DNA of 64,000 nucleotides from Escherichia phage RB49, in sequence record NC_005066.1, one strand, 5' to 3'. The notes under the pieces were generated by a model. It was not told the DNA's origin. It did not search any database and saw only the letters and a program-made list of their open reading frames with translations. A program made the position numbers and the translations under genes. Positions 1,268 to 61,765 of this stretch are shown here, piece by piece. Within the stretch, counting starts at the first letter, position 1. Each line of letters opens with the position of its first letter.

Positions 1268-2770
1268 ATGCAAGATATTAAAATTCACTTTCTGAACTAC
1301 TCCCATGTTCAAATTGAATGTAGCGATTCAATTTTATTAGAAATGCGAGATTATTTTAGTTTTGAAGTCGAGGGAGCGCGGTTTCAAAAAAGATTTAAGT
1401 ATGGTGGATGGGATGGGCGTATTCGTCTTTTAGATTACAACGGAAAGCTGCCAATCGGCCTAACTAAAACCGTGGGAATCTTCGCTAAAAATATGGGCTA
1501 TAGCGTATGGGTAGATCCTCGCTTATTCGAAAAAGAACAAGTTACAGAAGAAGAAATTACAAAATGGTGTAATGACTTAGAATTATATTCCGGTGCTAAC
1601 AGGATCACCCCGCACTGGTATCAATCAAAGGCTGTCTTTGAAGGTATTCATCATAAACGCCGTATGTTAGTTTTGCCTACGTCCGCTGGTAAATCTGCGA
1701 TTGCTTGTATGTTGTCTCGTTGGTACTTAGAGAACTACGAAGGGAAAGTGCTGATCATCGTTCCTACCACGTCGCTAGTGCTGCAAATGCGTGATGATTT
1801 TGTTGATTATCGCCAGTTTCCGTATGAAGCAATTCATACTATCATGAGCGGTACTAGTAAACACGTAGGTGATCGCCTGATCGTTGTTAGTACGTGGCAA
1901 TCAGCATGTAAACAGCCGAGTGAATGGTTCCAGCAATTTGGGATGGTTATTGTTGATGAATGTCACAAGGCCACTGCTAAAAACCTGCTAAACATCGTTA
2001 CTGATATGGATCATTGCCAGTTTAAGATCGGTATGACTGGTTCCCCTCGTGACGGGAAAGCTAACATGATGCAGTATGTCGGTCTTTTCGGTGATATTTC
2101 TAAGATCGTGAGTATTGACCGCCTGATGGAAGAAGGTCAAGTGACGAAACTGAAAATCAACTGTCTTTTCCTTCGTTATACCGATGAGGAATGTAGCGCG
2201 GTTAAGGGTAGAGAATATGCGGAAGAGATCAAGTATATTACGTCTAACCCACGACGTAATAAGTTTGCTTGTAATTTGGCGCTAAAACTCGCTAAGAAGG
2301 GCGAAAACGTATTCCTGATGTTCCGCAATACTAAGCACGGAAAACTTATGTATGATGCGTTACAGAAGGTACACGACAAGGTTTATTATATTGACGGTGG
2401 AGTTAAGACAGAAGAACGTGATGAATTTAAGAAATTAGCGGAAGGGGAAACAGGGATCATTTGCGTTGCATCCTATGGTGTGTTCTCTACTGGTGTTTCA
2501 ATTAAGAACTTGCACCATGTTATTTTCGGTCATCCAGTGAAGGAATCAACTATCGTTCGTCAGAGTATCGGTCGTGCATTGCGTAAACATGGTTCTAAGG
2601 ATATTGCAACGGTCTGGGATCTTATAGATCATCTGGCGGTGAAGACAAAGAGCAAGAATGCTAAGAAACAGTTTAGCCACCTTAATTATGCTCTTAAACA
2701 TGCCCTTGAAAGAATAAAAATTTACAACACCGATCGATTCGAATATGTCACGAAAACCATCGAGATTTAA
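1268..2770 (+). CDS. uvsW: UvsW DNA/RNA helicase (SF2)
   Basis: Strong similarity to T4 UvsW N-terminus (MDIKVHF...); Walker A LPTSAGKS, DEAH-like VDECH; track ORF begins at upstream GTG, ATG at 1268 has GAGG RBS. Confidence 0.95.
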   Translation: MQDIKIHFLNYSHVQIECSDSILLEMRDYFSFEVEGARFQKRFKYGGWDGRIRLLDYNGKLPIGLTKTVGIFAKNMGYSVWVDPRLFEKEQVTEEEITKWCNDLELYSGANRITPHWYQSKAVFEGIHHKRRMLVLPTSAGKSAIACMLSRWYLENYEGKVLIIVPTTSLVLQMRDDFVDYRQFPYEAIHTIMSGTSKHVGDRLIVVSTWQSACKQPSEWFQQFGMVIVDECHKATAKNLLNIVTDMDHCQFKIGMTGSPRDGKANMMQYVGLFGDISKIVSIDRLMEEGQVTKLKINCLFLRYTDEECSAVKGREYAEEIKYITSNPRRNKFACNLALKLAKKGENVFLMFRNTKHGKLMYDALQKVHDKVYYIDGGVKTEERDEFKKLAEGETGIICVASYGVFSTGVSIKNLHHVIFGHPVKESTIVRQSIGRALRKHGSKDIATVWDLIDHLAVKTKSKNAKKQFSHLNYALKHALERIKIYNTDRFEYVTKTIEI

Positions 2771-2775
2771 TAAAT

Positions 2776-2800
2776 AGGGGCTTTAATGCCCCTTTATTCT
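2776..2800 (+). terminator. intrinsic terminator after uvsW
   Basis: Hairpin AGGGGC-tttaat-GCCCCT followed by T-rich run. Confidence 0.6.
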
Positions 2801-2813
2801 ACGGAGATTAAAA

Positions 2814-3050
2814 ATGATTAGCTTTAAACGTTTTTTGGTTGAGGCCGCTATTGACGGTTTCATGAGTAAGATTTATTCTTGTAATACTATCGAGGGATTA
2901 AATGAACTTGAGGCATATTATGAGAAGCGCAAGAAAGAAACAGAATTGAAACCTGCTGATGATATTTCGATCCGTGATGCCATCGCTGGACGCCGTAAGC
3001 AATTGGAAGCGGACAACGAGCCAGAAGAGGAGCCGGAAGAGGATTTTTAA
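2814..3050 (+). CDS. uvsW.1: UvsW.1-like small acidic protein
   Basis: Track ORF 78 aa directly downstream of uvsW, as in T4. Confidence 0.6.
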   Translation: MISFKRFLVEAAIDGFMSKIYSCNTIEGLNELEAYYEKRKKETELKPADDISIRDAIAGRRKQLEADNEPEEEPEEDF

Positions 3051-3055
3051 GATAT

Positions 3056-3082
3056 AAAAAAGCCCCATCATTGATGGGGCAA
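3056..3082 (-). terminator. intrinsic terminator for minus-strand 26-25-uvsY transcripts
   Basis: Hairpin GCCCCATC/GATGGGGC followed by T6 on minus strand. Confidence 0.65.
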
Positions 3083-3113
3083 AATAAACCAATTAAAATC
3101 GGTTATCAACAAA

Positions 3114-3290
3114 TTACATTAACAGCATTGTTTGCTCTACGAGTTGTTCTTGTTCTTCGCCGTTCGCATCTTCACTAATCGAACGTTCTGTTACTAGCTG
3201 TAAGCAGTAGCCAGTATGAACAACGCCGTTTTCTGTCTGGACGGATAACGCATCCTCGACAGGTTGTTTACAACAAATACAGATTTTCAT
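3114..3290 (-). CDS. small Cys-containing protein (58 aa) in uvsY.-1 position
   Basis: Hand-found ORF below track cutoff: MKICICCKQPVEDALSVQTENGVVHTGYC...; AGGAGG RBS 6 nt upstream of ATG. Confidence 0.55.
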   Translation of the reverse strand: MKICICCKQPVEDALSVQTENGVVHTGYCLQLVTERSISEDANGEEQEQLVEQTMLLM

Positions 3291-3311
3291 AAAAATTCCT
3301 CCTGCATGTAT

Positions 3312-3719
3312 TTAGCGACCAGATTCCAGCATACGCAATTCTATAGCATTCTTGATCGCAAAGCCACGAGATTTAACGATATCAAGTGCGCGACCAGCAA
3401 AATCCATTACCATCTGGTAATATGCAATTTTCGTATCAAGCGGTAAGATCTCGTCGTCTGCTGCCATGACAACTTTCAATTCTGATTTCTCATATTCAGC
3501 ACGACACCAGTCATCACTACGGTTAGTGTAAAAGTCAAGACGATTTTTCATAGCCTTTTTCTTTTTAGCCTCAAGAGCAATCGTCTCTCTTTTCGCCTCG
3601 CTGTAAATCCTTAACCACTTTGAGTATACTACCGGATTATTCAGCGCCTCCCATTGCAACTTAGTCGCATCGATCTTCATGTCAGCTTCTAATTGTTCTT
3701 TCAAATCGTTTAGGTCCAT
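3312..3719 (-). CDS. uvsY: UvsY recombination mediator
   Basis: Similarity to T4 UvsY (KSRGFAIK motif, size 135 aa), synteny. Confidence 0.9.
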   Translation of the reverse strand: MDLNDLKEQLEADMKIDATKLQWEALNNPVVYSKWLRIYSEAKRETIALEAKKKKAMKNRLDFYTNRSDDWCRAEYEKSELKVVMAADDEILPLDTKIAYYQMVMDFAGRALDIVKSRGFAIKNAIELRMLESGR

Positions 3720-3766
3720 AATATCCCCTTATTCACACTAAGACCTATATCATATCACACACAAAA

Positions 3767-4153
3767 TCACTTTGCAAGTCTTATGCGTAGTTGTTCAAGA
3801 TCATCTGGGTTGTCTATTACTGAAAAGTAGATTGATACTATGATTGAGTTATCGTCGTACTGCGGAGTTACTTCTACTGTCAGGTTTCGGACCCGTGGTT
3901 CATAGTTTCGGATCGCCTCATTGATGTTTTTTGATAAGGTATCCACCGTCAGTGGGTTCATGTTCTCAAACAAAGATTTATTGAGATCGCATCCAAACAG
4001 TGGATCAAATGGACGAGATCCCTTGCGAGTAGTCACGATCAGTAGAATAGAATCCTTAACCGCTTTAATCCCTATGTTCTTTTTAACGTCGTTATTCCAC
4101 GATCTGGATATATTGAGATCCAAATCAGTATACATCTGATTAATAGTTGCCAT
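3767..4153 (-). CDS. 25: gp25 baseplate wedge subunit
   Basis: Strong match to T4 gp25 (TTRKGSRPFDPLFGCDL, RNYEPR, FSVIDNPDD); start moved to ATG with GAGG RBS. Confidence 0.92.
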   Translation of the reverse strand: MATINQMYTDLDLNISRSWNNDVKKNIGIKAVKDSILLIVTTRKGSRPFDPLFGCDLNKSLFENMNPLTVDTLSKNINEAIRNYEPRVRNLTVEVTPQYDDNSIIVSIYFSVIDNPDDLEQLRIRLAK

Positions 4154-4161
4154 GTTATACC

Positions 4162-4791
4162 TCAAAGAATTTTAAGGAAACTGGATAGACCTGATAATGA
4201 ATATACACCAGATTCCCCGCATTCGCACTTGATCGGTACTGCCAGCGTGATTTGATTTCTTGTTAGCTCGTCGATCACTTCTTCCACTTTATCCGTGGTA
4301 AGCATATCCAGCACGCGGTCAAAGTCCTGTGCGTTCAGGTCGTCTATATTGAATTGCTGATCGCCGATCACGATATATTCGATACATGCAATTACCATCT
4401 GCATAATATCAACATCTTCTGTAAACTTAGGTTGACGAAACTTGATTTTTACTTGTCCTAAGTCCAGAATATACGGTTCAACTTCTGGTATCTGTGTGCG
4501 TGAAACATCAAGAGAGTATACTTTCTCTTTATTGCATACACCACACACCCAAGTAGCATCAAATTTCATCTTATTGAGGCTGTGACACCATAAGAGAAGA
4601 AAAATATATTCTGCTTCGCATTTCTCTAGCTCTAATGCATTGATCCCCGTACATTCATGTATGATCTCTATAACAACCTCTGACAGCTTGCCAGTCTCTT
4701 TTGCTGCTACCAGTTTTTGAAATTCGCCGAAGGTGAAAGCACGGGCGTGTATCAACTTTTCGCCTAATTGGATCTTGAAAAAGTATTGCAT
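4162..4791 (-). CDS. 26: gp26 baseplate hub subunit
   Basis: Size (209 aa vs 208 in T4) and position between 25 and 51. Confidence 0.65.
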   Translation of the reverse strand: MQYFFKIQLGEKLIHARAFTFGEFQKLVAAKETGKLSEVVIEIIHECTGINALELEKCEAEYIFLLLWCHSLNKMKFDATWVCGVCNKEKVYSLDVSRTQIPEVEPYILDLGQVKIKFRQPKFTEDVDIMQMVIACIEYIVIGDQQFNIDDLNAQDFDRVLDMLTTDKVEEVIDELTRNQITLAVPIKCECGESGVYSLSGLSSFLKIL

Positions 4792-44984: not shown

Positions 44985-44992
44985 TATAAATA
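44985..44992 (+). promoter_or_regulatory. T4-type late promoter TATAAATA upstream of gene 34
   Basis: Exact TATAAATA ~28 nt upstream of ATG. Confidence 0.6.
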
Positions 44993-45020
44993 TGAACATA
45001 CTATAAAAGGAGACCCAATA

Positions 45021-48000
45021 ATGGCAGATTTTTCTCAACATTTCAAGGCCACATTTGGCTTTGACGCTGGTAATGAAAAGGTCGTCAATGTAGCATTGGC
45101 TGATAAGAATGTCAACACCGATGCGGTCAACGTTGAATTTTTCAATTACCATAATGGCATTACTCAGTATGACACAACTCGCGGTTATGATCAATACGGA
45201 ACTACAATTTATCAAAACCGTCCATATTATGCAAAAGAAGATATCACAAAGCCAGCAGGTGATTTTGACCCGACTAAATGGCAAGCACTGCGCACGGACC
45301 CACGTTGGGATTATATTGCAGCAACTTCCGGTGATACTCCTTTAAAGTCTGGTGATTATATCGCAGCAGATGGTCAATTTGCAAACTTGACTTTCTCTAT
45401 GCCAACTAAACCAGCAGAGGGAGACACTATAACAGTAAAAGATATCGGTGGCAAGTGTGGTGTTAACGAATTATCGTTCTTGAGTTCAGGACATGAGTTT
45501 TACCATAACGGTAATGTGTATAACCGAAAATGGTATTGCACTACCCCGTATGCAATGAACTATTTCATCTTTGTTCGGAATCGTTGGCATGTTTATCAGA
45601 CGGGAACAGAGCCGCGCGGTGTGTACGCACAGCCAGCGATTGATGCTATTCAAATGCAGAATGGTGATCAGGTATTTCGTCGTAGTTCGTTGGGTAATAT
45701 TACCTTAGTGCTTCCTAAGTTTGCCAACAATGGCGACATGATCCAGACTACAGACCTTGACGGATTAACCGCAACCAACCACGTTACGGTTAAAGTTCAT
45801 GAGCACGCAGAAGAACAATCAATTGGCACGTCCGGTCTAAAAGAGATTATCGGTAAGCGTAGCGGTCATGGTGTATTCATCTTTGACAAACCGGAAAACT
45901 TATGGCGTTTGTGGGATGGTGATCAGTCTGTTCGTCTTAAACCGATCATCGATGACACTCGCTTGCAACCTAATAGCTATGTTGCTGTATTTGGTGATCG
46001 TGATGTTACTCTGACTCTACCGACCAATGTTGAGCCGGGTGATCGTATTCAAGTTTCTATGCAGTATATGCACGGAAACCAGAATTGCCGTATTATCACC
46101 GCCACAGAGGATACAAAAATCCTTATGTCGAAAAACATGGTTCAGTTTCCGAAGCGTAGCGAGTACCCATTCAACGGGACCGACACATGGAAGGAAGTGT
46201 CTGAATTGTCGTTCAATGCGGCTAGTGATTATGTACCTTATCTGGAGTTCTCTTATTCAGAAGGTGATGATGGTAAGAAACATTGGCTGGTAGCACACTC
46301 TCATCCGATCGTCGAACGAGTAGACCCTACTCGTAAAGATCGTGTTGGTGTAATTGCACTGGCTACCCAGACTGAAACGAATAAAAACCATGAAGAGAAT
46401 CCTAGCGACGAAGTTGCGGTAACACCAAAAATGCTGGCTAATAAAACCGCCAACGAAACTCGACGCGGTATTGCTCGCATTGCGACTCAAGCGGAAACGC
46501 ATCAAGATACTGGTTCCAACTTCCTGGATGATGTTATCGTTACGCCTAAAAAGTTAAATGATTGTGTTGCTACCGAAGCCCGTCGTGGCGTGATGGAAAT
46601 TGCAACCCAGCACGAAACCAATGAAGGTTTAGACGATACCCGCGCTATTACACCTAAGAAATTAGAAGAACGTCGCGCTTCCGAAGATCTCGCTGGTATT
46701 GCTGAAATTGTTCAGGCTGGCGGTAGTGCTGCCGCTCGACGTGGCGAAGCTGGTACAGGGATCTATAACATCAACGACCATGTTAAAATTGTTACGCCAC
46801 AAAACATCAACGAAGTCAAGGCGACCGAAACTTCCCGTGGTGTTGGCTATCTGGCAACTGACGCGGAAGTGCAAGGGGCTACAGAATCAACCCCGCAAGA
46901 TGCTTTACTAATCACGACTCGCACGCTAACGAAACGTACTGCTACCGAATCGCGCACTGGTATCGCTGAAATTGCAACTCAGGAAGAAACAAACTTAGGT
47001 CAAAGTGATAACCATATCATCACGCCTAAAAAGCTGCATACTCGCCGCGCAACGGAAACTTTACACGGTTTAGCAGAAATTGCAACTCAGCCGGAATTTG
47101 ACGCAGGTCTTGACGATGCTCGCATTTCTACCCCATTGAAGATTAAAACCTTCTTTGAGAATGCACAGCGTTTGAAAGTAGATCCGACTCAGGGGCTTAA
47201 CCTTACTGGTGATTTGTGGCAAGGTATCATGATCAGCGGTCTGGATGCAACCGAAGACACAAAGGGTGTCGCTAAAGTTGCTACTACTCAGCTTACGGAT
47301 GCTGGTCAAGATGATACTACAATCATCACGCCTAAAAAGCTGCAAGGCAAAAAAGCCACCGAAGGTAAAGAAGGTATTATCCGCGTTGGTACTCAAGCCG
47401 AAACCGTGGCTGGTACACTGGCTAATGTAGCAATTTCTCCGAAGAACTTCAAATATGTTGTTCAGACAGAGGATACATGGAAAGCAACCGAAGCGCGTCG
47501 TGGATTCTTGAAAGTTGCTACTCAGGAAAACTGTTTTGTTGGTGATAATCTGCAAGGTTCTACTCAAGAACTAGGAAACTACCAGCATGACGGAATTGCT
47601 GTTACTCCGAAAGGATTAAACTACGCACTTGCTAATTTCTTACCTAAGATGGCAACCGCTCAGAATAGTTTGAAATTGGGTAACGTAGAGGCCGCTAAAT
47701 GGGCGCGTAGAGACATTGACCAGACCATAGAGAGCAATTACACGTTTAATAAAAACGTTAACGTGAAGGGCGATTTAGAGTGCTTAAAATCTGGTTCCTT
47801 TGAAACTCTGTCTGTGACTAAGAACTCAACCGATGATCCGAGTAATGGTCATCTGGTGTTGGGTGAGCGTGGAGTTGACGGTCACACCGGAATTACTCTG
47901 CATGGCACAACCGCATCGGAAGGCATGAAAAACTCGTGGTCTATTATCGTTGGTGGTACTGGAACAGCGCAAGTTGTTGATAGTGATGCTATCGCTTTCG

Positions 48001-48761
48001 GTAAAATCAATGATGGTGGAGTCGTCGAGCATTACGCCTTTGCTATGAAACACAATGGCGACGCGACAGCATATAGAGACTTTATTGCAGGTCGCAACCT
48101 GTATGCGAAACAAGGCGGTTTATACATTGTTGACCAGTCTAATCCGGCAATGACTCGTTCCCCAGATGGTATGCTGAATATCGGTCACGGTGGAAGTGTT
48201 AACATCAAGGCAGGTCATCAAACGTTAACTACAGAGATCGCCGGACAGAAATATCAGATCGTACACGCAGGAAACGCTGACGAAGTTCTTAACCGTCAGT
48301 TTGTTAAGAATGCTGGCGATACAATGGTCGGTAAGCTGACTATGGATAATGCGCCTATTGTTTCTGTTAAGCATGAAGCTAGCGCGGCAACCGCTCCAGC
48401 AATCGGTAACATCGGTTTCTGGAATATGCGAGTTACTACCCAGAACATCAAAGAAACTTATCCAGAGAAGAAAAACGGTACTCTGATGCAATGGGGTACT
48501 GACGCGGACGGGCTTACCCAGCTTTGGTCCCCTGATGGTACTCATAAACATTATATCCGTTCCGGTACTGGTGGTCAATGGACCGCATGGGGTGAAATTT
48601 ACACCAAACAGAACAAACCTACCGCCCAGGAAATCGGGGCAGTGGTTGCAGAAGGTGGTTTAATGAACTCTATGACGGTTCGTGATTGGATCAAAGTTGG
48701 TAATGTTAAAATCATCGCCAATAATCTGACTCGTACCGTAGACTTTATCTGGGAAGACTAA
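45021..48761 (+). CDS. 34: gp34 long tail fibre proximal subunit
   Basis: 1246 aa; conserved repeats TETRRGIARIATQAE, ISTPLKIKT as in T4 gp34. Confidence 0.93.
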   Translation: MADFSQHFKATFGFDAGNEKVVNVALADKNVNTDAVNVEFFNYHNGITQYDTTRGYDQYGTTIYQNRPYYAKEDITKPAGDFDPTKWQALRTDPRWDYIAATSGDTPLKSGDYIAADGQFANLTFSMPTKPAEGDTITVKDIGGKCGVNELSFLSSGHEFYHNGNVYNRKWYCTTPYAMNYFIFVRNRWHVYQTGTEPRGVYAQPAIDAIQMQNGDQVFRRSSLGNITLVLPKFANNGDMIQTTDLDGLTATNHVTVKVHEHAEEQSIGTSGLKEIIGKRSGHGVFIFDKPENLWRLWDGDQSVRLKPIIDDTRLQPNSYVAVFGDRDVTLTLPTNVEPGDRIQVSMQYMHGNQNCRIITATEDTKILMSKNMVQFPKRSEYPFNGTDTWKEVSELSFNAASDYVPYLEFSYSEGDDGKKHWLVAHSHPIVERVDPTRKDRVGVIALATQTETNKNHEENPSDEVAVTPKMLANKTANETRRGIARIATQAETHQDTGSNFLDDVIVTPKKLNDCVATEARRGVMEIATQHETNEGLDDTRAITPKKLEERRASEDLAGIAEIVQAGGSAAARRGEAGTGIYNINDHVKIVTPQNINEVKATETSRGVGYLATDAEVQGATESTPQDALLITTRTLTKRTATESRTGIAEIATQEETNLGQSDNHIITPKKLHTRRATETLHGLAEIATQPEFDAGLDDARISTPLKIKTFFENAQRLKVDPTQGLNLTGDLWQGIMISGLDATEDTKGVAKVATTQLTDAGQDDTTIITPKKLQGKKATEGKEGIIRVGTQAETVAGTLANVAISPKNFKYVVQTEDTWKATEARRGFLKVATQENCFVGDNLQGSTQELGNYQHDGIAVTPKGLNYALANFLPKMATAQNSLKLGNVEAAKWARRDIDQTIESNYTFNKNVNVKGDLECLKSGSFETLSVTKNSTDDPSNGHLVLGERGVDGHTGITLHGTTASEGMKNSWSIIVGGTGTAQVVDSDAIAFGKINDGGVVEHYAFAMKHNGDATAYRDFIAGRNLYAKQGGLYIVDQSNPAMTRSPDGMLNIGHGGSVNIKAGHQTLTTEIAGQKYQIVHAGNADEVLNRQFVKNAGDTMVGKLTMDNAPIVSVKHEASAATAPAIGNIGFWNMRVTTQNIKETYPEKKNGTLMQWGTDADGLTQLWSPDGTHKHYIRSGTGGQWTAWGEIYTKQNKPTAQEIGAVVAEGGLMNSMTVRDWIKVGNVKIIANNLTRTVDFIWED

Positions 48762-48794: not shown

Positions 48795-49934
48795 ATGACA
48801 CAAGATATAGAATTACGCAACACTGGAATTAGGTTTGCGCATTTCGACGAAGACTCTGCGACATTTACCAGCATTTCAGAAAATAACTCTGTGATGTATA
48901 AGCTGGAAGTGCGCGGATCTAATGCGGATTCTACCAAACCAGCAAGAATTCGATTTAATGGAGTGGAGATCGTTGGCACTGGCTATGAAAATGGCCTAAA
49001 TTTTAAAGTTCTTACTCCAACTGGACAACTACACGAAGAAAAGGTATTCTATGGTCGCGGTGCTGTTTTGGCAATGCGTGATTATCTTTCTTTGCTGAAA
49101 GGTGATTATATCATTGCGATGGCAACTCATGGAGAATTGTTTGCAGATCCGATAAGTGATGTTGTATTTTCTAAGATGGGATCTGTATCATTCCCGAATC
49201 ACATTTTGTTACAGCAAATGCCTCGTGTATCATATGCAGCAATTTATTCTACTAAAATGGGTAAAATTGTGTGCGAAGGGATGCAAGCAACTCACGGGGA
49301 AGGACAAGATTCATCTATACAAATTGAGAAAGTCTATGATACTATAGATGATCTTGCTATAACAGGAACACCACAACGATTTTTAGATTATCCGGTTGAG
49401 TATGTTAGCGAAGATGCCGAACATTTCGAGCTAATACAATGGCCTCATGATGAGATCAGCGCACCACTTGAATATTTTAACATAAAGGCAGGTGACAAAC
49501 TATCATTATCATTTGAATTGTTCCGTGATAGTGCCGCAGCCGCAGCCAACGTAACAGCGCGTTTCTATCACAACTATTTTACTGATGGACAATACAAAAC
49601 TGGCGTTCGATACAATGCCAGCAAAAAAGATCAATGGGAAAAGTTTGAAGCCGTCTATACCGTGCCGGAAGGTGTCGATAGTGTAGTAACTGGTTGTATC
49701 AGATATCCAACCAACTCAAATGAAGGTATTGTTAAAATTAGAAACATACTAATAACGCCGATCAGTGGAGTCGTCAAAACTACTGGTCCTACTTCATTTG
49801 GTGTTAATGGTGTTAGAACAACTCATATTCAGGATAACGGTGATTTTACTAACCCTGTAATGAGTCTTCTTAAACTTCCTAGAGATAATAAACACATCAC
49901 ATCCAACAACTTTAAAGAGTTCGATGTTGATTAA
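48795..49934 (+). CDS. 35: gp35 long tail fibre hinge
   Basis: Size (379 aa vs 372) and synteny. Confidence 0.75.
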   Translation: MTQDIELRNTGIRFAHFDEDSATFTSISENNSVMYKLEVRGSNADSTKPARIRFNGVEIVGTGYENGLNFKVLTPTGQLHEEKVFYGRGAVLAMRDYLSLLKGDYIIAMATHGELFADPISDVVFSKMGSVSFPNHILLQQMPRVSYAAIYSTKMGKIVCEGMQATHGEGQDSSIQIEKVYDTIDDLAITGTPQRFLDYPVEYVSEDAEHFELIQWPHDEISAPLEYFNIKAGDKLSLSFELFRDSAAAAANVTARFYHNYFTDGQYKTGVRYNASKKDQWEKFEAVYTVPEGVDSVVTGCIRYPTNSNEGIVKIRNILITPISGVVKTTGPTSFGVNGVRTTHIQDNGDFTNPVMSLLKLPRDNKHITSNNFKEFDVD

Positions 49935-50096: not shown

Positions 50097-50104
50097 TATA
50101 AATA
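50097..50104 (+). promoter_or_regulatory. T4-type late promoter TATAAATA upstream of gene 36
   Basis: Exact TATAAATA ~33 nt upstream of ATG. Confidence 0.6.
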
Positions 50105-50137: not shown

Positions 50138-51628
50138 ATGGCAGATTTGAAACATGGATCTACTGTAGGCGGATCTCCCATTTGGACGCAAGGAAACTTG
50201 ACGATCCAGCCAGCGGGGGATCAGCTTTTCTACAAAGGTCATAAAATCTATACCGCTTTTGATAGACCTTCGGCTACCGATTTTGATGCTGTTAGTGCAT
50301 CCGAAGGTGGAACATTTCAAAAGCAAGTTCATTTCGAGGAAGGTTTAAGCGTAGGTAGCGCATCGGCTGGAGAAACCAAAAAGAATGGTATCTTTAAAGG
50401 CCAGAGTGATGCTGCTAATTTTGACGGCGTAAGCTGGGGTTTGCATTCATGGAAGTCAATCGGCTTTGTTAATGCCCGTGATGGCGTTATTATGGCTTAT
50501 ATTGACACCACAACGGGCGAATTTAAGTCTAAAGGGACTATCGAAGGGACAACCATTAAAGATACAGGTCAACGCGTCTATAGCCCTGTTAATAAACCAA
50601 CGAATAATGATTTAGATTTGGTGTCTCGTCGCGGTGATACCCTAACAGGAACATATAATTTAAACACTGTCACAGTTAAACTATCGGTTGATTCGAAATT
50701 AATTGCAAGGGAACGTGATTTAATTAATTTTGATGCGACTAAGATCTATTATGGTAACGTTCTTGATACGTTGGTATTCCGAAGTAAAGATGAGCCTACC
50801 ATTTTTGTTAATGGCAAAGAAGGTCGTTTTTATCACACCAACAATAAACCGACTAAAGCCGATGTTGGACTAGGCAATGTCACCAATGATGCACAGGTTA
50901 AACGTGCTGGTGATATTATGGAAGGTAACTTGCAAGCGCCTAGAATGTTGGCGACAAACGATCCTGCTGGTCCTAATGAATTGGTTCGTTTGAGCTACTT
51001 TGAGAGAAAATCAATGGTAGCAAATCCAACCATCATTGGAAACGTTGATTGGAACACTCTTATTAATCGCGGTATCTATCGTGTGGAAAATGCTGGGTCG
51101 GGCACTAATAAACCGTCTGATAGCTATTATAATGGCGTTTTGATGGTATATCGCCCAGAAGATGCGGTCGGTACTCGTCGAATTGTTCAGGTGTATTATC
51201 CTGAATCTATTGACCATCCGATGTGCTGGCGTTCGTGTTCTAATGAATCATGGACTGCATGGAACTATGTAGATCACCGTAAATTAGCCGATATTCGCTA
51301 TGTTAACGTAACTGGCGATACCATGACAGGACCGTTAACTGTTCCGGCTGCAAACGGTGTTAGAACAGCTAAAACTAACTATAACGGGGATAACTGTTAT
51401 GCGGCGTTAAGCGGTGCTGATGGTACTGCTATGATTCACCGCATTAGTGATATTAAAGGGACCGAAAAGCTGGGGATCACCCACGACTCAAAGGTCGTGT
51501 TTTTCCGTTCTAGAAACAATACTCAAACCGTGGACCGCTATCAGCTTTATCATGAAGGTAATAAACCTACTCCGGCTGATGTTGGAGCGGTTCCACTTAA
51601 TGCGGTGATTGATTTTGGTACTTTCTAA
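50138..51628 (+). CDS. 36: gp36 long tail fibre distal-proximal connector (expanded, 496 aa)
   Basis: N-terminus matches T4 gp36 (MADLK.GST.GGS.IW.QGN); much longer than T4 (221 aa). Confidence 0.8.
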   Translation: MADLKHGSTVGGSPIWTQGNLTIQPAGDQLFYKGHKIYTAFDRPSATDFDAVSASEGGTFQKQVHFEEGLSVGSASAGETKKNGIFKGQSDAANFDGVSWGLHSWKSIGFVNARDGVIMAYIDTTTGEFKSKGTIEGTTIKDTGQRVYSPVNKPTNNDLDLVSRRGDTLTGTYNLNTVTVKLSVDSKLIARERDLINFDATKIYYGNVLDTLVFRSKDEPTIFVNGKEGRFYHTNNKPTKADVGLGNVTNDAQVKRAGDIMEGNLQAPRMLATNDPAGPNELVRLSYFERKSMVANPTIIGNVDWNTLINRGIYRVENAGSGTNKPSDSYYNGVLMVYRPEDAVGTRRIVQVYYPESIDHPMCWRSCSNESWTAWNYVDHRKLADIRYVNVTGDTMTGPLTVPAANGVRTAKTNYNGDNCYAALSGADGTAMIHRISDIKGTEKLGITHDSKVVFFRSRNNTQTVDRYQLYHEGNKPTPADVGAVPLNAVIDFGTF

Positions 51629-51698: not shown

Positions 51699-54638
51699 AT
51701 GGCAGATTTAAGCAGAATCCAATTTAAACGCACTAGCACTAAAGGTCGTCGACCTGATGCTGGTACGATGAATCCGGGGGAATTGGCAATCAACCTTGCG
51801 GATCAATATCTTCTTACTAAAAATGATTTCGGTGCTATTATCAATTTAAGTTGTCCTCCGGTTTATGACCGCGATGTTACAATGGCAGGTAAGGTTAAAG
51901 GTAATAATTATATCTTAAGTAAAACCGCTAACTATCTGGAAGATCAGACAGCGCGAGATCTTAATTACTTTGGTGCTTTCCGTACCAATGGTCTTGATGG
52001 TCTTCTCGAACTCACGCTAAACGTTCCTCATTCTTCTGGTGTTCAGCATGGTCGAGGATTTACTTTCCAGTATGGACATACTGGATCACGAGTAGAAACC
52101 TATGGCTATAATAGAGAAGGTCAAAAAGCATTTAGTTATAAAATGTATCACGAAGGCGATAAACCTACACCATCGGAATTGAACGTTTACAGCAAACAAG
52201 AAATTGACCGTATGTTTGTTAAGAACGTTAAAATGGTTGTTCCTTCTGGTGGTGCAACCCGTGGTTATTTTAAAATTGCATCCGCAATGATCCCGCAGAG
52301 TGGTCGGATGGTGTTTCTGCGAATCTATGATGGTAATGGATATAATGTAAACTCATATGATCAAGTTGATTTTCTTGAAATTGTTATTCGTAGTGGTAAT
52401 AATAACCCTAAAGGTGTTAGTATTGCTGCTTATCGTCGAAATGCTCTGAACGTTCATCAAGTATTTGCGGTTAATACTTCCGGTGATAACTACGATATCT
52501 ACGTTAACTACGGTCGTTACACCGATAACGTTATTGTCGAATACGGTAAAACTAATGATGTTACTCTGACAGTACATGATGTTCCTGAATTAACTCTCGT
52601 TAAACCTTCTGTTGGTGTTACCGATGCTCGTGTTATTACAATGTTCAACACCGAAAACAAAGCCGGAACGTTGATGTTTGATAATAACCCGCAAGGGACT
52701 TACGATATTATCAGTTTGAGTAATGCTGCTGATAATAATAGAAATTATCTGCGTAAATTCCGAAGCAAAGCTAGTGAAATGGTTTGGCATGAAACCGTTC
52801 AGGGTGCTGTATATCGTCTTGCTACTGGTGCTACAGATTCTACAGAAGTTATTAGAATTGATTCTAATAGTGCAATACCGGGTAATTATAAAGGATATGT
52901 AATTACTGGTAAAATGGAATTGCACGGTAGTGGTAATGCGATGACTTTACATCGACAGACTGGTCAAGCTGCATATATGGCGTGGTGGGATCGTCGTGAT
53001 GGTAAAAACCAACGTAGTGGTTATATCGGTCATGCGGATGGTACTAGTGATGGTTTTGTGTGGCGTAATGATGTTGGTGCTAACTCATTTGATTTGGAAG
53101 GTAGTGGACAAGTAAATTTGACTACAGGAAAAACAAAAATTGTATATACCAATGGTCAATATTATTCCGCTAACGCCGATGCATACCGTATGATCTTTGG
53201 TAATTACGGTGCATTCTGGCGTAATGACGGCACTAAAGTTTATCTTCTGTCTACTGCTGAAAATGATAAGTATGGTGGATGGAATGCCTATCGTCCATTC
53301 ATTTATGATTTAACTTCCGGTAACGTTCAATTAGGCGGTGATGGTAACGAAGAAGCATTAACGTTAGAACGTGCTTCTCGTGCCGCTCGCTTTAGTAATG
53401 ACGTTTACATTAAGAAAGGGCATTTGACTTTCGACGCTGGGCGATTAAATTCCCGCGATTACTTCCGGTTTAACCATTGGGGTGATAGTAATAATGCTCG
53501 TGATAACATCTTACAGCTTGACGATAGCAAGGGTGCTCATTTTACCACTGAACGTACTTTAGCAACTGGTGCAATTAAAACTAAATTCTTCGGTGATTTG
53601 GAATCTGCTGGTCAAATTAAATGGGGTAAAGGGACCGCCACATCTACGTTTACTCTACGTGTATGGGGTAACGATAGTCGTAAACAAATATTTGAATGCG
53701 GCGATGAAAGCGGGTGGCATTGGTATACCCAACGAGCGGGGGGTCCTGGTACAAATGAGATTATATTCAATGTTAACGGGAAATTTCAATCTCGGGATTT
53801 TGAGACTTCCGGTAATATTAAGATAACTGGTCCAGACATTGAGTTTCGTCGCACTGGTAATAAGCACATCTGGTTTAGAGATCCGAACGGTTTAGAATTA
53901 GGTTTGATGTACTGCGATGATGCTGGTGCTATTCGCTTCCGTGGTCAGAAACAAGCCCAGACGTGGAAACTTGCGGATAAGATGATTCATCTTGAGGCGG
54001 GGACTGTCGGCGGATCTGATAAAGGTTTGATTCGTGGTAGTGTTGCTGGTGGTAGCTGGGCTAGCTGGCGTGATCGTTCTGCCGGAATCCTCGTAGACTG
54101 TCCTCAATCAACCGATTCCGCTCATAACATCTGGAAAGCGACTCATTGGGGAAAATATCATATTGCGGCAATGGGTGTACACGTTCCTGGCGGCACTATA
54201 GGTAATGCTATAGCACGCCTAAACGTTAATGACGCAAACTTTGAATTTAGCGCCTCCGGTGACATGTCGGCAGGACGTAACGGTAGCTTTAACGATGTGT
54301 ATATTCGTTCTGATGCTCGACTTAAAATCAATAAGGAAGAGTATAAAGAGAATGCCACCGATAAAGTTAATCGCTTGACTGTATACACCTATGATAAGGT
54401 TAAATCTTTAACCGACCGTACTGTCATTGCCCACGAAGTTGGTATTATTGCACAGGATCTTGAGAAAGAATTGCCGGAAGCAGTAACAACTTCTAAGGTT
54501 GGCGATCCTGATAAGCCAGAAGAAATCTTAACAATTTCTAACTCTGCTGTCAACGCTCTTTTAATTAAGGCGTTCCAGGAAATGAGCGAAGAACTTAAAG
54601 CCGTTAAAGCTGAACTAGAGGAACTTAAAAAGAATTAA
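51699..54638 (+). CDS. 37: gp37 long tail fibre distal subunit (receptor-binding) with C-terminal chaperone domain
   Basis: N-terminus matches T4 gp37 (IQFKR....G.RP.A......GELAINL.D); 979 aa. Confidence 0.9.
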   Translation: MADLSRIQFKRTSTKGRRPDAGTMNPGELAINLADQYLLTKNDFGAIINLSCPPVYDRDVTMAGKVKGNNYILSKTANYLEDQTARDLNYFGAFRTNGLDGLLELTLNVPHSSGVQHGRGFTFQYGHTGSRVETYGYNREGQKAFSYKMYHEGDKPTPSELNVYSKQEIDRMFVKNVKMVVPSGGATRGYFKIASAMIPQSGRMVFLRIYDGNGYNVNSYDQVDFLEIVIRSGNNNPKGVSIAAYRRNALNVHQVFAVNTSGDNYDIYVNYGRYTDNVIVEYGKTNDVTLTVHDVPELTLVKPSVGVTDARVITMFNTENKAGTLMFDNNPQGTYDIISLSNAADNNRNYLRKFRSKASEMVWHETVQGAVYRLATGATDSTEVIRIDSNSAIPGNYKGYVITGKMELHGSGNAMTLHRQTGQAAYMAWWDRRDGKNQRSGYIGHADGTSDGFVWRNDVGANSFDLEGSGQVNLTTGKTKIVYTNGQYYSANADAYRMIFGNYGAFWRNDGTKVYLLSTAENDKYGGWNAYRPFIYDLTSGNVQLGGDGNEEALTLERASRAARFSNDVYIKKGHLTFDAGRLNSRDYFRFNHWGDSNNARDNILQLDDSKGAHFTTERTLATGAIKTKFFGDLESAGQIKWGKGTATSTFTLRVWGNDSRKQIFECGDESGWHWYTQRAGGPGTNEIIFNVNGKFQSRDFETSGNIKITGPDIEFRRTGNKHIWFRDPNGLELGLMYCDDAGAIRFRGQKQAQTWKLADKMIHLEAGTVGGSDKGLIRGSVAGGSWASWRDRSAGILVDCPQSTDSAHNIWKATHWGKYHIAAMGVHVPGGTIGNAIARLNVNDANFEFSASGDMSAGRNGSFNDVYIRSDARLKINKEEYKENATDKVNRLTVYTYDKVKSLTDRTVIAHEVGIIAQDLEKELPEAVTTSKVGDPDKPEEILTISNSAVNALLIKAFQEMSEELKAVKAELEELKKN
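54309..54635 (+). other. intramolecular chaperone (peptidase S74-like) domain; predicted autocleavage before Ser of SDARLK
   Basis: YIR|SDARLKINKEEY... matches the SDARLK cleavage motif of phage fibre/endosialidase chaperone domains. Confidence 0.7.
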
Positions 54639-54680
54639 GGAAAATTCCCAGGGAAGGGAAACTACTAAGGAGAAACGGCT

Positions 54681-54920
54681 GTGGTCTATAATATCATCAT
54701 TGGTGCTTTGTCTAATTTCGGAATGAAATTATTGTCAAAGTTAATTAGTGAAAAGATGCTCACTAAAATTTTCTTCTATTGCGCTCGTCGTCTTGCGGCT
54801 TATACCAATACGCCAATTGATGATCGTTTTGTGGAAGAACTTTATAAGGAGTTTAATAAAGATCAGTCAGAAGATAGTAACGAGCAAGATAAACCTAGTG
54901 ATAGTCAACTACCTAAATAA
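54681..54920 (+). CDS. small protein (79 aa) with hydrophobic N-terminus
   Basis: Track ORF between 37 and t (position of gene 38 in T4, no similarity). Confidence 0.45.
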   Translation: MVYNIIIGALSNFGMKLLSKLISEKMLTKIFFYCARRLAAYTNTPIDDRFVEELYKEFNKDQSEDSNEQDKPSDSQLPK

Positions 54921-54953: not shown

Positions 54954-55610
54954 ATGCAAGTTTCTGAAAAAGGGAAAGACTTTGCTATCTCAAATGTCCT
55001 GCGCGCTATTTTCACAACTAAAAGCACGGAGTTGCTCGTACTTCGTGTTTTTGCTGCCGTCGTGTTGTCCATATTAGCATTTGTCGTTTATAGTAAAAAC
55101 GAGTTATTTGCGCTTTATAAAGAGACTCGTTATGAGACTTATGCTCACATTCTCCAGGTAGAGAAAGACCGCAATTTTGATAATGCAGCACAGGAGCAGT
55201 TACAGATAGTTCATGTGTCGGCTGATGCCGATTTTTCTGCTGTTTTTAGTTTTCGTCCGAAAAACCTAAACTATTTTGTTGATTTGGTGGCATATGAAGG
55301 AAAGCTACCGCACACAATCGATGAAAAAAATTTAGGCGGATTCCCTATCAATAAAACGAGTGAAGAATATCGTAGGCATCTTTTAGGTAAATCCTATTTT
55401 ACCGATAAAGATTTCCAGTATATTCCATCAAGAGAAAAGAAATTAGAGAATATCGATATAGGTTTCATGTATTCTTGTCCTATATTCAATCTCGATAATG
55501 TCTATTCTGGTAGTATCGCCATTTCATGGAAGAATAAACCGGATATTGACATTGAGAATTTAGATACTCTTTGCAATCAATCTGCCAGAATCCTCGGAAG
55601 GATTAGATAA
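54954..55610 (+). CDS. t: holin
   Basis: 218 aa, collinear with T4 T (QLQIVHVSADADFSAVFSFRPKNLNYFVD..AYEGKLP, MYSCPIFNLDN, ARILGR). Confidence 0.95.
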   Translation: MQVSEKGKDFAISNVLRAIFTTKSTELLVLRVFAAVVLSILAFVVYSKNELFALYKETRYETYAHILQVEKDRNFDNAAQEQLQIVHVSADADFSAVFSFRPKNLNYFVDLVAYEGKLPHTIDEKNLGGFPINKTSEEYRRHLLGKSYFTDKDFQYIPSREKKLENIDIGFMYSCPIFNLDNVYSGSIAISWKNKPDIDIENLDTLCNQSARILGRIR

Positions 55611-57906: not shown

Positions 57907-58665
57907 TTACTTGCAAACGTATTGATCTACATCAATTGCGCCACCGAATGTAGGATGACGTTTTTCGAATCGAATAGTTCCGTCGTTTGGTTCGAAAACG
58001 GAGTATTCATATAGATCTTTCTTGCCAACATTCTTATAAAACCCGCCTTTAGTCATAACGGTTTCTTGTACGTTTGCTTTGTGTACGTTGTATTCATCAA
58101 TGTATACAAAATCAACCATCTTCCCATTTTTAATGGTTACTTTAAGATCTCCTGGTTGGTTTCCATATTTTGCATACAGTGGAGCTTCTTTAATTTTGGT
58201 GGAAATTCCATCTTTCATACTCCACTCATAACGAACGGTGCATTGATAGGTAAAAGTTTCGACCTTCGGTTCTTCCACCACTTTTTCTTCCTGTTTCGGT
58301 TGTTCTTCTTCAACCTTCGCAGAAGTCTCTGAATCGCTTTCTGACGCGGTTTCTTCTTTAGGTAATACATTCATCAAGTTTTGGATTTGAGCGTTGTATA
58401 CAGCCTCCAGTGGCTGAATCTGCCCGATATTGATCATTGTATCACGAACAGTTTTATTCCAGTTGCGTTGCTCTTGTTTAAGCGACGGGTCAATCTTAAC
58501 AGCCTTAACATATACTTCATGAAGTTTAGAATCAAGTGCGGAGATAGACTCATTAGCACAAATAAACTTCTCTGATTTGGTAGTAGCTTTAGCGCAATCA
58601 AAGGACGCAGCGTTAGCACCGAAAGCAGTAGCAGAAAGAACGATAGCAGCGATAATGTTTTTCAT
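57907..58665 (-). CDS. secreted DUF1311/LprI-like protein (252 aa)
   Basis: Signal peptide MKNIIAAIVLSATAFGANA; FDCAKATTKSEKFICANESISALDSKLHEVY resembles DUF1311 N-terminal motif. Confidence 0.5.
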   Translation of the reverse strand: MKNIIAAIVLSATAFGANAASFDCAKATTKSEKFICANESISALDSKLHEVYVKAVKIDPSLKQEQRNWNKTVRDTMINIGQIQPLEAVYNAQIQNLMNVLPKEETASESDSETSAKVEEEQPKQEEKVVEEPKVETFTYQCTVRYEWSMKDGISTKIKEAPLYAKYGNQPGDLKVTIKNGKMVDFVYIDEYNVHKANVQETVMTKGGFYKNVGKKDLYEYSVFEPNDGTIRFEKRHPTFGGAIDVDQYVCK

Positions 58666-60389: not shown

Positions 60390-61765
60390 CCCTTCTTAAG
60401 TTCTTTAAGATCTTTCTTATATTCCTTCATTGCGGTCGTCTTTGTCCAATACTCATATTCACTATGATGTTTATCGGCATCTTTGACCAGTCGATCATAC
60501 TCTTCTTGAGTAACGCTATACAATGGCATAGAAACTAGCTTATCGGCGTATGGACGCAGTTTTTCATGTCCATTGATGGATTGCATTACCTCGGACTTTT
60601 TCTTGCCCTGTAGCTCGATTTCGCCCTTAATTACGCGATCGATAAATTCGGCTTTAGCCATTGCATAATTGTATGCTTCCAGCGTTTCCGCTTGCATCAA
60701 TTCAATGCGTTTATCGACATACCCTAATCGGATTTCGACGAATCGACGGATCAGATCGCTCGCTTTCTCGAATACTTCTACTAAACCACGTTCGTTAACT
60801 ACTACGATATTCTGGGCTACTAACTGCGTTAGTTTAAAATCCTTCATGATTTGCTCATGTCGAGCGGATTCATCTTCGCTTTTGAAATAATCGCGTTTCA
60901 GTGTTACTTCAAATCTGAATCCGTCCTTAGAGCAACGGTCATTATACGATACAATCAGATCTTTTTCTTCCAGTGCATCCAGTACCGCTACATATTCTTC
61001 ACGGTCGAACTTATAAGGAACTTCTGATATTGTCAGTTTAGTCTTGCCGTTTAGTTCATATGTACCCTCAAGAATCACACCATCGCGATCATCTCGCGGG
61101 ATAACTTTACCTGTGAATTTCGGGAATTGAACACTAGGTTCTTTATCCAGTTTTCCGGCAAGTGCTAGCTCTGTGCATTCAATAAGGCTTTCCAGTGAAT
61201 GCGGTAAAATGTCAGTTTTATACCCTGTAGCAATACCACTAATACCATTAGCCAATACCATTGGCACAACTGGCAAGTAGAACGCTGGCGGGATGTGTTC
61301 CAGATCTTCGTGCTTAGGTGCGCAATTCATATCTTTATAGATTTTAAAGAAGTTTTCATGCACACGAGCAAAGATATAACGTGCCGCACCTGCTTTCTGG
61401 ACTAAACGCGATCCGAAGTTACCTTGACCGTCAAGCAGTGGAGTATTATTGCTCCATGTATTCGCCATGAGTGATCCGGCTTCTACGGCATTAGTTTCCC
61501 CGTGGTGATAACCCAACTCAGCAACACCAGATCCAATATCTGCCATCTTACGGAATTTCTTACGGTCGCCTTTACTCTTTTGCAAAGCACATTCCATAAC
61601 AAAGCGTTGCACTGGTTTAAGCCCATCCACTAATTGAGGAATCCCGCGTTCCTCAGCAGAATAGATCGCATATTCCTTAGCTTCATTATGTACAATGCTT
61701 TCAAGGCTGCGGTAAGTAAATGTGTTTACAATTTGACTAATTTTATCCATCTTCACCTCATACAC
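60386..61765 (-). CDS. 52: gp52 DNA topoisomerase II medium subunit (GyrA-like)
   Basis: RGIPQLVDGLKPVQRFVM matches GyrA/ParC N-terminal motif; 459 aa. Confidence 0.88.
   Translation of the reverse strand: MYEVKMDKISQIVNTFTYRSLESIVHNEAKEYAIYSAEERGIPQLVDGLKPVQRFVMECALQKSKGDRKKFRKMADIGSGVAELGYHHGETNAVEAGSLMANTWSNNTPLLDGQGNFGSRLVQKAGAARYIFARVHENFFKIYKDMNCAPKHEDLEHIPPAFYLPVVPMVLANGISGIATGYKTDILPHSLESLIECTELALAGKLDKEPSVQFPKFTGKVIPRDDRDGVILEGTYELNGKTKLTISEVPYKFDREEYVAVLDALEEKDLIVSYNDRCSKDGFRFEVTLKRDYFKSEDESARHEQIMKDFKLTQLVAQNIVVVNERGLVEVFEKASDLIRRFVEIRLGYVDKRIELMQAETLEAYNYAMAKAEFIDRVIKGEIELQGKKKSEVMQSINGHEKLRPYADKLVSMPLYSVTQEEYDRLVKDADKHHSEYEYWTKTTAMKEYKKDLKELKKG

Follow-up and report, generated by a model that had tools for sequence, protein, structure and literature searches.

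How does a phage complete and arm the tip of its long tail fibre when the slot between genes 37 and t does not hold gene 38? This question is raised by the 64,000-nucleotide stretch of DNA analysed here (sequence record NC_005066.1; hereafter, the window), in which gene 37, encoding the distal long-tail-fibre subunit gp37, is separated from the holin gene t by an open reading frame (ORF) of 79 amino acids (aa), ORF79. A preliminary description of the locus had proposed that gp37 carries a self-cleaving chaperone, that no gp38 homologue is present, and that the cleaved end of gp37 is the receptor-binding tip. The present analysis indicates that, very likely, the distal module of this fibre is built on the plan of phages T2, T6 and S16 rather than on that of T4, with a cleaved gp37 and a gp38 adhesin encoded far from the fibre genes.

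Judged by its sequence, the window is a segment of an RB49/Phi1-like (Krischvirus) genome: positions 1-25000 are 95-98% identical to Krischvirus genomes (RB49, Phi1, JSE and similar ones) in megablast searches. For the region from gene 37 to t, the identity to Krischvirus genomes is 84-91% (28 different phages among the matches listed), a lower value that is expected because this is a host-range locus; what is new here amounts to an allele of a hypervariable host-range gene, no more.

An S74-type chaperone at the C-terminus of gp37

gp37 terminates in an S74-type intramolecular chaperone of 109 residues, and the protein itself matches the families of long-tail-fibre distal subunits. Residues 871-930 match the full Pfam profile Peptidase_S74 (PF13884, profile positions 1-58 of 58) with an expectation value (E) of 1.4e-11 and a score of 45 bits, over the gathering score of 22 and far beyond chance, so that the domain assigned in the preliminary description is borne out. 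Its boundary was also placed correctly: the sequence reads ...NDVYIR/SDARLKIN..., and both the start coordinate, 54309, and the count of 109 residues are exact because the TCT codon at 54309-54311 encodes residue 871. Lys876 is the AAA codon at 54324-54326, and S871-D-A-R-L-K876 fits the S-D-x-x-x-K motif with the Ser/Lys dyad at the start of the domain. In an alignment of 20 sequences, with members down to 37% identity, the pattern D-V-x-I-R-S-D-x-x-L-K-x-N is invariant, including Ser871 and Lys876.

Comparison with solved structures gave the same assignment. In a phmmer search, gp37 aa 857-979 matched the S16 gp37 chain of PDB entry 6F45 (E = 1e-4), with the window sequence ...NDVYIRSDARLKIN... 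aligned to S16 ...RDLNVSSDRRIKKD... and SDARLK matched to the S16 motif SDRRIK; the match of the same region to the MyRF ICA domain (7DC3, E = 0.47) is weak and, by itself, insignificant. In an AlphaFold2 model of aa 801-979, the chaperone part has predicted local distance difference test (pLDDT) values of 76-95 as means over 10-residue blocks, most of them 85-95, and contains a long C-terminal helix at model residues 148-178. The top Foldseek matches of this model in the PDB were solely solved chaperone domains of the same family, namely, the MyRF ICA domain 7DC3 (E = 3e-5), the endosialidase domain 3GW6 and the GA-1 domain 3GUD. The K1F endosialidase, the GA-1 neck appendage, T5 pb1 and MyRF (MEROPS family S74) share with gp37 the fold, the Ser-Lys dyad and the C-terminal location on a trimeric beta-helical protein. 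In those cases, however, the cleaved protein is itself an enzyme or a receptor binder, whereas in gp37 the cleavage would additionally make a docking site.

Predicted cleavage and maturation of the distal fibre

By analogy with characterized fibres, gp37 is predicted to cut itself between Arg870 and Ser871. The S16 protein is cut at DLNVS^SDRRIKK, which releases 113 residues and exposes the gp38 dock (Salem et al. 2021, PMC7917993). In the same work, the S16 site was aligned with DVYIR^SDGRLKI, the fPS-phage site, which represents other T-even phages (PMC7917993), and the motif in the window is identical to the latter except for one substitution. For RB49 itself, it has been stated that gp37 carries a self-cleaving chaperone and that removal of this chaperone lets the gp38 monomer attach (Efimov 2022, PMC9569957).

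Under the proposed scheme, in which cleavage and gp38 docking are taken from homologues and from the literature, gp37 would be translated as a 979-aa precursor of 108.8 kDa, and its last 109 residues (12.2 kDa) would nucleate trimerization and folding of the beta-helical fibre tip. The chaperone would then excise itself by means of the Ser871/Lys876 dyad, leaving a mature subunit of 870 aa (96.6 kDa) that ends with ...NDVYIR. The exposed end would not be the main receptor binder but would dock a separate, monomeric gp38 adhesin that confers receptor specificity. In this genus, gene 38 would have moved to a hyperplastic region outside the window, some 54 kb past t, with the slot between genes 37 and t filled by the unrelated ORF79 (Dc5, phrog_402), probably transcribed late together with genes 36, 37 and t. 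The genus also encodes gp57A, a general chaperone of fibres (Phi1, 60895-61155).

The comparison with T4 and with the T2/S16 systems defines what is specific to this locus. T4 relies on a separate gp38 chaperone, as the preliminary description had it: in a control scan, T4 gp37 contained no S74 domain and was followed by the 183-aa gp38, an assembly chaperone unrelated to the adhesin. The T4 and window fibres have in common the position in the fibre, the neighbouring genes (36 and t) and a Gp34_trimer-like segment, but T4 gp37 bears a receptor-binding needle of its own, and the Collar and Phage_fiber domains of this needle are missing from gp37 of the window. In S16 (PDB 6F45) and in T2, T6 and RB10, the S74 end of gp37 is autocleaved at x^SDxR(L/I)K, exposing the gp38 dock, as proposed here; gene 38, however, lies between 37 and t in S16, T2 and RB10, whereas here ORF79 occupies this slot and the relatives have gene 38 about 54 kb away, a known RB49-type exception to the usual order (PMC3157838). 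Upstream of the cut, the tips of S16 and of the window are dissimilar, and the alignment with 6F45 starts just 6 residues ahead of it (PMC7917993). Thus, the maturation route does differ from that of T4, as had been suggested, but it is the standard T2/T6/S16 route and not a new one, because the RB49 group has a distant gp38 (PMC3157838) and gp37 of RB49 has been stated to be self-cleaving, with gp38 attaching afterwards (PMC9569957).

The region immediately preceding the predicted cut is shared with a T2-type phage. The tip of gp37, aa 774-870 (aa 24-120 of the query), is 57.7% identical to that of RB10, in which gene 37 is followed directly by the GP38 adhesin gene and then by t, and RB10 gp37 has the same architecture of Gp34_trimer and S74 domains. 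By analogy with S16 (PMC7917993), the mature gp37 tip is probably a docking platform for gp38 rather than a receptor-binding tip. The Gp34_trimer domain of gp37 matches, in phmmer searches, the T4 gp34 structures 4UXE and 5NXF (C-terminal region) and the Mu tail fibre S structure 5YVQ; the homology to T4 gp34 points to module sharing between the proximal and distal half-fibres.

Two database records bear on gene 37. The enterobacterial gp37 tip has a counterpart of 67.5% identity in OK283618.1 (10581-10931), an 87-kb genome labelled 'Listeria phage LPML1'; this host label is odd for a genome of such size with a gp37 tip, and the record may be mislabelled. In the Brandy49 record of phage Brandy (locus L013, 1501-4430), gene 37 is annotated as two overlapping coding sequences, 1501-3138 and 3084-4430, pointing to either a frameshift or an error of sequencing in the record.

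In relatives, gene 38 lies far from the fibre genes

Neither type of gp38 is encoded in the window. The best tblastn matches in the 64 kb had E = 6.6 with the Phi1 gp38, a T2-type adhesin, and E = 0.56 with the T4 gp38 chaperone. A Pfam scan of ten window ORFs, which are 198-310 aa long (198-274 aa in eight cases), detected no gp38, and the two of the ten that had no Pfam match, once translated and inspected, were not gp38 either.

The relatives of the window tell a different story about the phage. In Phi1, gene 38, annotated as 'gp38 distal long tail fiber adhesin', occupies 44989-45765, a place some 54 kb past t when the map is read as a circle, and its product matches the Pfam families GP38 (E = 1.8e-70) and Gp38_N (E = 3.9e-18), the two domains of the S16/T2/RB10-type adhesin. 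The same spacing of about 54 kb between t and gene 38 is found in RB49, Whisky and ELT3. At least 80% of Phi1 gene 38 is contained in 97 phage records, among them ELT3, Whisky, PTE-Eco09, AV108, PHB13, SSG23, TB34, RB49 and Sf20, the closest relatives of the window. Among the 40 of the 796 gp38-containing records that were listed, at least 19 of the 28 phages matching the region from gene 37 to t also carry gp38 (Phi1, RB49 and at least 17 others). A T2-type gp38 is encoded, some 54 kb past t, in every close relative that could be checked; with 8.4 kb of sequence after t, the window cannot contain gene 38. Hence the claim that no gp38 homologue is present holds for the slot and for the 64-kb window but, as a statement on the phage, almost certainly fails, the apparent absence being an artefact of the window boundary.

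This displacement of gp38 in RB49-type phages, together with a short ORF, its function unknown, in the slot, has been described (Trojet 2011, PMC3157838), and gp38 has been reported not to be near the holin in FL37 and FL38, two phages of the genus Krischvirus (PMC12032242), both of which are among the megablast relatives of the window. RB49 host-range mutants carry the substitutions E230K and Y231S, both in gp38 (PMC9569957).

In Phi1, gene 38 is on the opposite strand, among small ORFs of the early region. Upstream of it (locus L002, 45766-45830), there is a GC-rich stem-loop with a T-run; the late-promoter motif TATAAATA was not found in this interval.

The small ORF in the gene 38 slot

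ORF79 starts with GTG, preceded at a distance of 7 nucleotides (nt) by AAGGAG. As noted in the preliminary description, the slot holds only this 79-aa ORF with a hydrophobic N-terminus, the Kyte-Doolittle maximum over 19 residues being a moderate 1.33, within the range of 1.3-2.1 seen in the family. Members of the family, found in 386 phage records with tblastn, span about 60 residues; their N-terminal segment is hydrophobic, a T-x-T-P-x-D-D-x-F motif is conserved, and the Krischvirus members add an acidic tail. Identity to ORF79 is 95-99% in Krischvirus and 32-48% in Ounavirinae, Grimontviridae, Lahexavirus and some Vibrio phages. The ORF is known as 'Dc5 ORF' in RB49-type phages (PMC6832132), and its homologues bear the precomputed label PF26925. 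In the Pfam scan, ORF79 had only a sub-threshold TPR match, and NCBIfam returned nothing.

The neighbours of the family members are lysis genes in three lineages (Krischvirus, Ounavirinae and the Vibrio phage) and structural genes in two (Table 1). There is, accordingly, no single neighbourhood rule for this family because the context varies by lineage.

A pairwise BLASTP comparison aligned ORF79 aa 40-59 (54798-54857) with aa 105-124 of the T4 gp38 chaperone, with 10 of the 20 residues identical, an exact run EELYKEF and E = 0.001. ORF79 was considered as a relic of T4 gp38 and rejected, with a probability of 1% in a profile-sequence hhalign comparison, and the local similarity is probably due to chance.

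Alternative readings of the locus

Several points weigh against the T2/T6/S16 plan. Gene 38 is outside the window, and it is from relatives and the literature that its presence in this very phage is extrapolated; a look-up of this gp37 sequence in a contig index gave no exact match, and the best DNA match of the region from gene 37 to t, among the matches listed, is 89-91% identical. The cleavage of gp37 is transferred from S16 and T2, and our literature search found no experiments on gp37 processing in any Krischvirus, virion proteomics included. The tip preceding the cut is poorly modelled as a monomer by AlphaFold2 (pLDDT 38-67 as 10-residue block means), a weakness to be expected when an intertwined trimer is represented by a single chain. 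Furthermore, the tip and S74 module (53949-54638) is 32-42% identical to L-shaped fibres of the T5-like Epseptimavirus, for example that of Salmonella phage SH9 (locus L009, 1739-4690), and these fibres have no gp38 gene downstream, so that the tip would not be intrinsically dependent on gp38; the module appears to serve both with and without a capping adhesin. These fibres, and the lack of either gp38 type in the 64 kb, would suit a phage without gp38 that binds its receptor by the cleaved gp37 end, ...DVYIR, like the L-shaped fibre protein pb1 of T5, as the preliminary description had it. We consider this highly improbable because gp38 is genus-wide, at the distant position that the window does not reach, and the RB49 host-range mutations fall in gp38 (PMC9569957); the tip, moreover, has 57.7% identity (aa 774-870) to its counterpart in RB10, a phage with gene 38 next to gene 37. 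The assignment of ...DVYIR as the mature receptor-binding tip is, for the same reasons, not supported. Less credible still is a degenerate S74 domain that aids folding but is no longer cleaved, with full-length gp37 in the virion. The lack of direct processing data for Krischvirus in the literature search leaves room for it, but the catalytic Ser and Lys and the flanking motif are invariant across the family, the S74 score is well over the Pfam threshold, and docking of gp38 in S16 needs the removal of the domain (PMC7917993); it is the invariance of the dyad that makes a relic so unlikely.

ORF79 might, alternatively, replace gp38 functionally, as a novel small adhesin or a dedicated fibre chaperone. 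It shares the syntenic position of gene 38, its co-transcription with gene 37 is probable, its Ounavirinae homologue also directly follows the last tail-fibre gene, and there is the 20-residue similarity to T4 gp38 with its EELYKEF run. Yet hhalign gives this homology a mere 1% probability, the family follows an endolysin gene in a Vibrio phage and, in podophages, separates the capsid genes from the tail genes without an S74 fibre in the vicinity, and a real gp38 adhesin exists in the genus. In addition, the Sf14 homologue is missing from the published gene-product table that records mass-spectrometric detection in particles (PMC11821841). Such a replacement is, all considered, improbable. Our leading guess is that ORF79 is a lysis-linked small membrane protein; it could be a holin partner or regulator, because it lies beside holin t and its homologues lie beside the 'putative holin' of Ounavirinae and the endolysin gene of the Vibrio phage. 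A fibre-assembly helper distantly related to the middle part of T4 gp38 is less likely. For its part, the cleaved gp37 tip may keep a receptor-binding site of its own because T5-like fibres with the same tip work without gp38. The twofold proposal that ORF79 is a real, widespread small membrane protein acting at the end of infection and that the cleaved tip retains its own receptor site is put forward as a tentative one, on the unlikely side.

Organization of the locus

The genes in this part of the window are arranged in the order 34-35-36-37-ORF79-t, with concordant PHROG and Pfam assignments and gene names (Table 1). The Phi1 locus has the same gene order and gene lengths, with a 79-aa 'ORF252' between gene 37 and t, and RB49, Phi1 and JSE all encode gp34 of 1246 aa, gp35 of 379 aa, gp36 of 496 aa and gp37 of about 980 aa with an S74 end, followed by ORF79 and t, as in the window. 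At 496 aa, gp36 is 2.2 times the length of its 221-aa T4 counterpart, in agreement with the preliminary description. Its length is invariant across the genus: the family phrog_16472 covers the entire protein, and Phi1 gp36 is also 496 aa long. Residues 57-154 have a weak match, under the cutoff, to the Pfam family Phage_T4_gp36.

The T4 late-promoter-like motif TATAAATA at 50097 is the only one from gene 35 to the end of t, although its 5 occurrences in the window are, overall, not above chance. No terminator-like sites or promoters separating gene 37, ORF79 and t were found on the plus strand. Genes 36, 37, ORF79 and t are probably co-transcribed late, as suggested by this lone motif and the lack of an intervening plus-strand terminator.

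Table 1. Features of the long-tail-fibre locus and of the ORF79 family (window coordinates unless another phage or locus is named)
Feature	Position (strand)	Size	Assignment or remark
gp34	45021-48761	1246 aa	
gp35	48795-49934	379 aa	
TATAAATA, T4 late-promoter-like motif	50097..50104 (+)		33 nt upstream of the gene 36 ATG
gp36, long tail fibre distal connector	50138..51628 (+)	496 aa	phrog_16472, 1-496/496; phrog_1425 'hinge connector ... distal connector'
gp37, long tail fibre distal subunit	51699..54638 (+)	979-aa precursor, 108.8 kDa	phrog_1699, E = 6.9e-191
Gp34_trimer domain of gp37	52971..53306 (+)	aa 425-536	Pfam PF21446, E = 2e-42
Mature gp37 distal tip	53949..54308 (+)	aa 751-870	ends with ...NDVYIR; candidate docking platform for gp38 adhesin
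Predicted autocleavage site, Arg870 (CGT)/Ser871 (TCT)	54306..54311 (+)		alignment to S16 and fPS-phage sites
Peptidase_S74 intramolecular chaperone	54309..54638 (+), stop codon included	aa 871-979, 12.2 kDa	
ORF79 (gene 38 slot, 'Dc5 ORF')	54681..54920 (+)	79 aa	phrog_402, E = 4.6e-20
Holin T (gene t)	54954..55610 (+)	218 aa	Pfam Phage_holin_T, E = 4.5e-61; phrog_860
ORF79 homologue, Ounavirinae (Sf14, Hena2)			after last tail-fibre gene; shares one base with a 111-124-aa coiled-coil 'putative holin' (phrog_4038)
ORF79 homologue, Vibrio phage 1.071.A			immediately follows an endolysin gene (phrog_315, E = 1.4e-46)
ORF79 homologues, Grimontviridae and Lahexavirus			flanked by needle-knob or tail genes on one side and virion-structural genes on the other
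ORF79-family locus L003	4992-5186		
ORF79-family locus L004	5004-5213		
ORF79-family locus L005	4992-5201		
ORF79-family locus L006	4001-4183		
ORF79-family locus L007	3992-4192		
ORF79-family locus L008	4001-4192		

Further downstream, on the minus strand (57907-58665), the window contains a 252-aa ORF with a signal-peptide-like N-terminus and, at aa 24-76, a match to the Pfam lysozyme inhibitor family LprI (E = 1.3e-5, with 26 bits where the cutoff is 22). Its positional counterpart in Phi1, ORF262, carries the annotation 'hypothetical'. A periplasmic lysozyme inhibitor encoded by a phage could resemble T4 Spackle in countering the tail lysozyme of a superinfecting phage.

Implications

The combination of a self-cleaving chaperone in gp37 and a displaced gp38 in RB49-type phages is already known: the arrangement has been in the literature since 2002-2011 and was restated in 2022, so that finding it here matters little beyond correct annotation. 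It does call for caution, given that a gene counted as 'absent' because a 64-kb window lacks it, or because its syntenic slot is empty, may be located elsewhere in the genome. For the prediction or engineering of the host range of an RB49-like phage, the receptor determinant to examine is gp38 and not the end of gp37. Should it be true that the cleaved gp37 tip keeps a binding site of its own, RB49-like phages would have two binding specificities per fibre.

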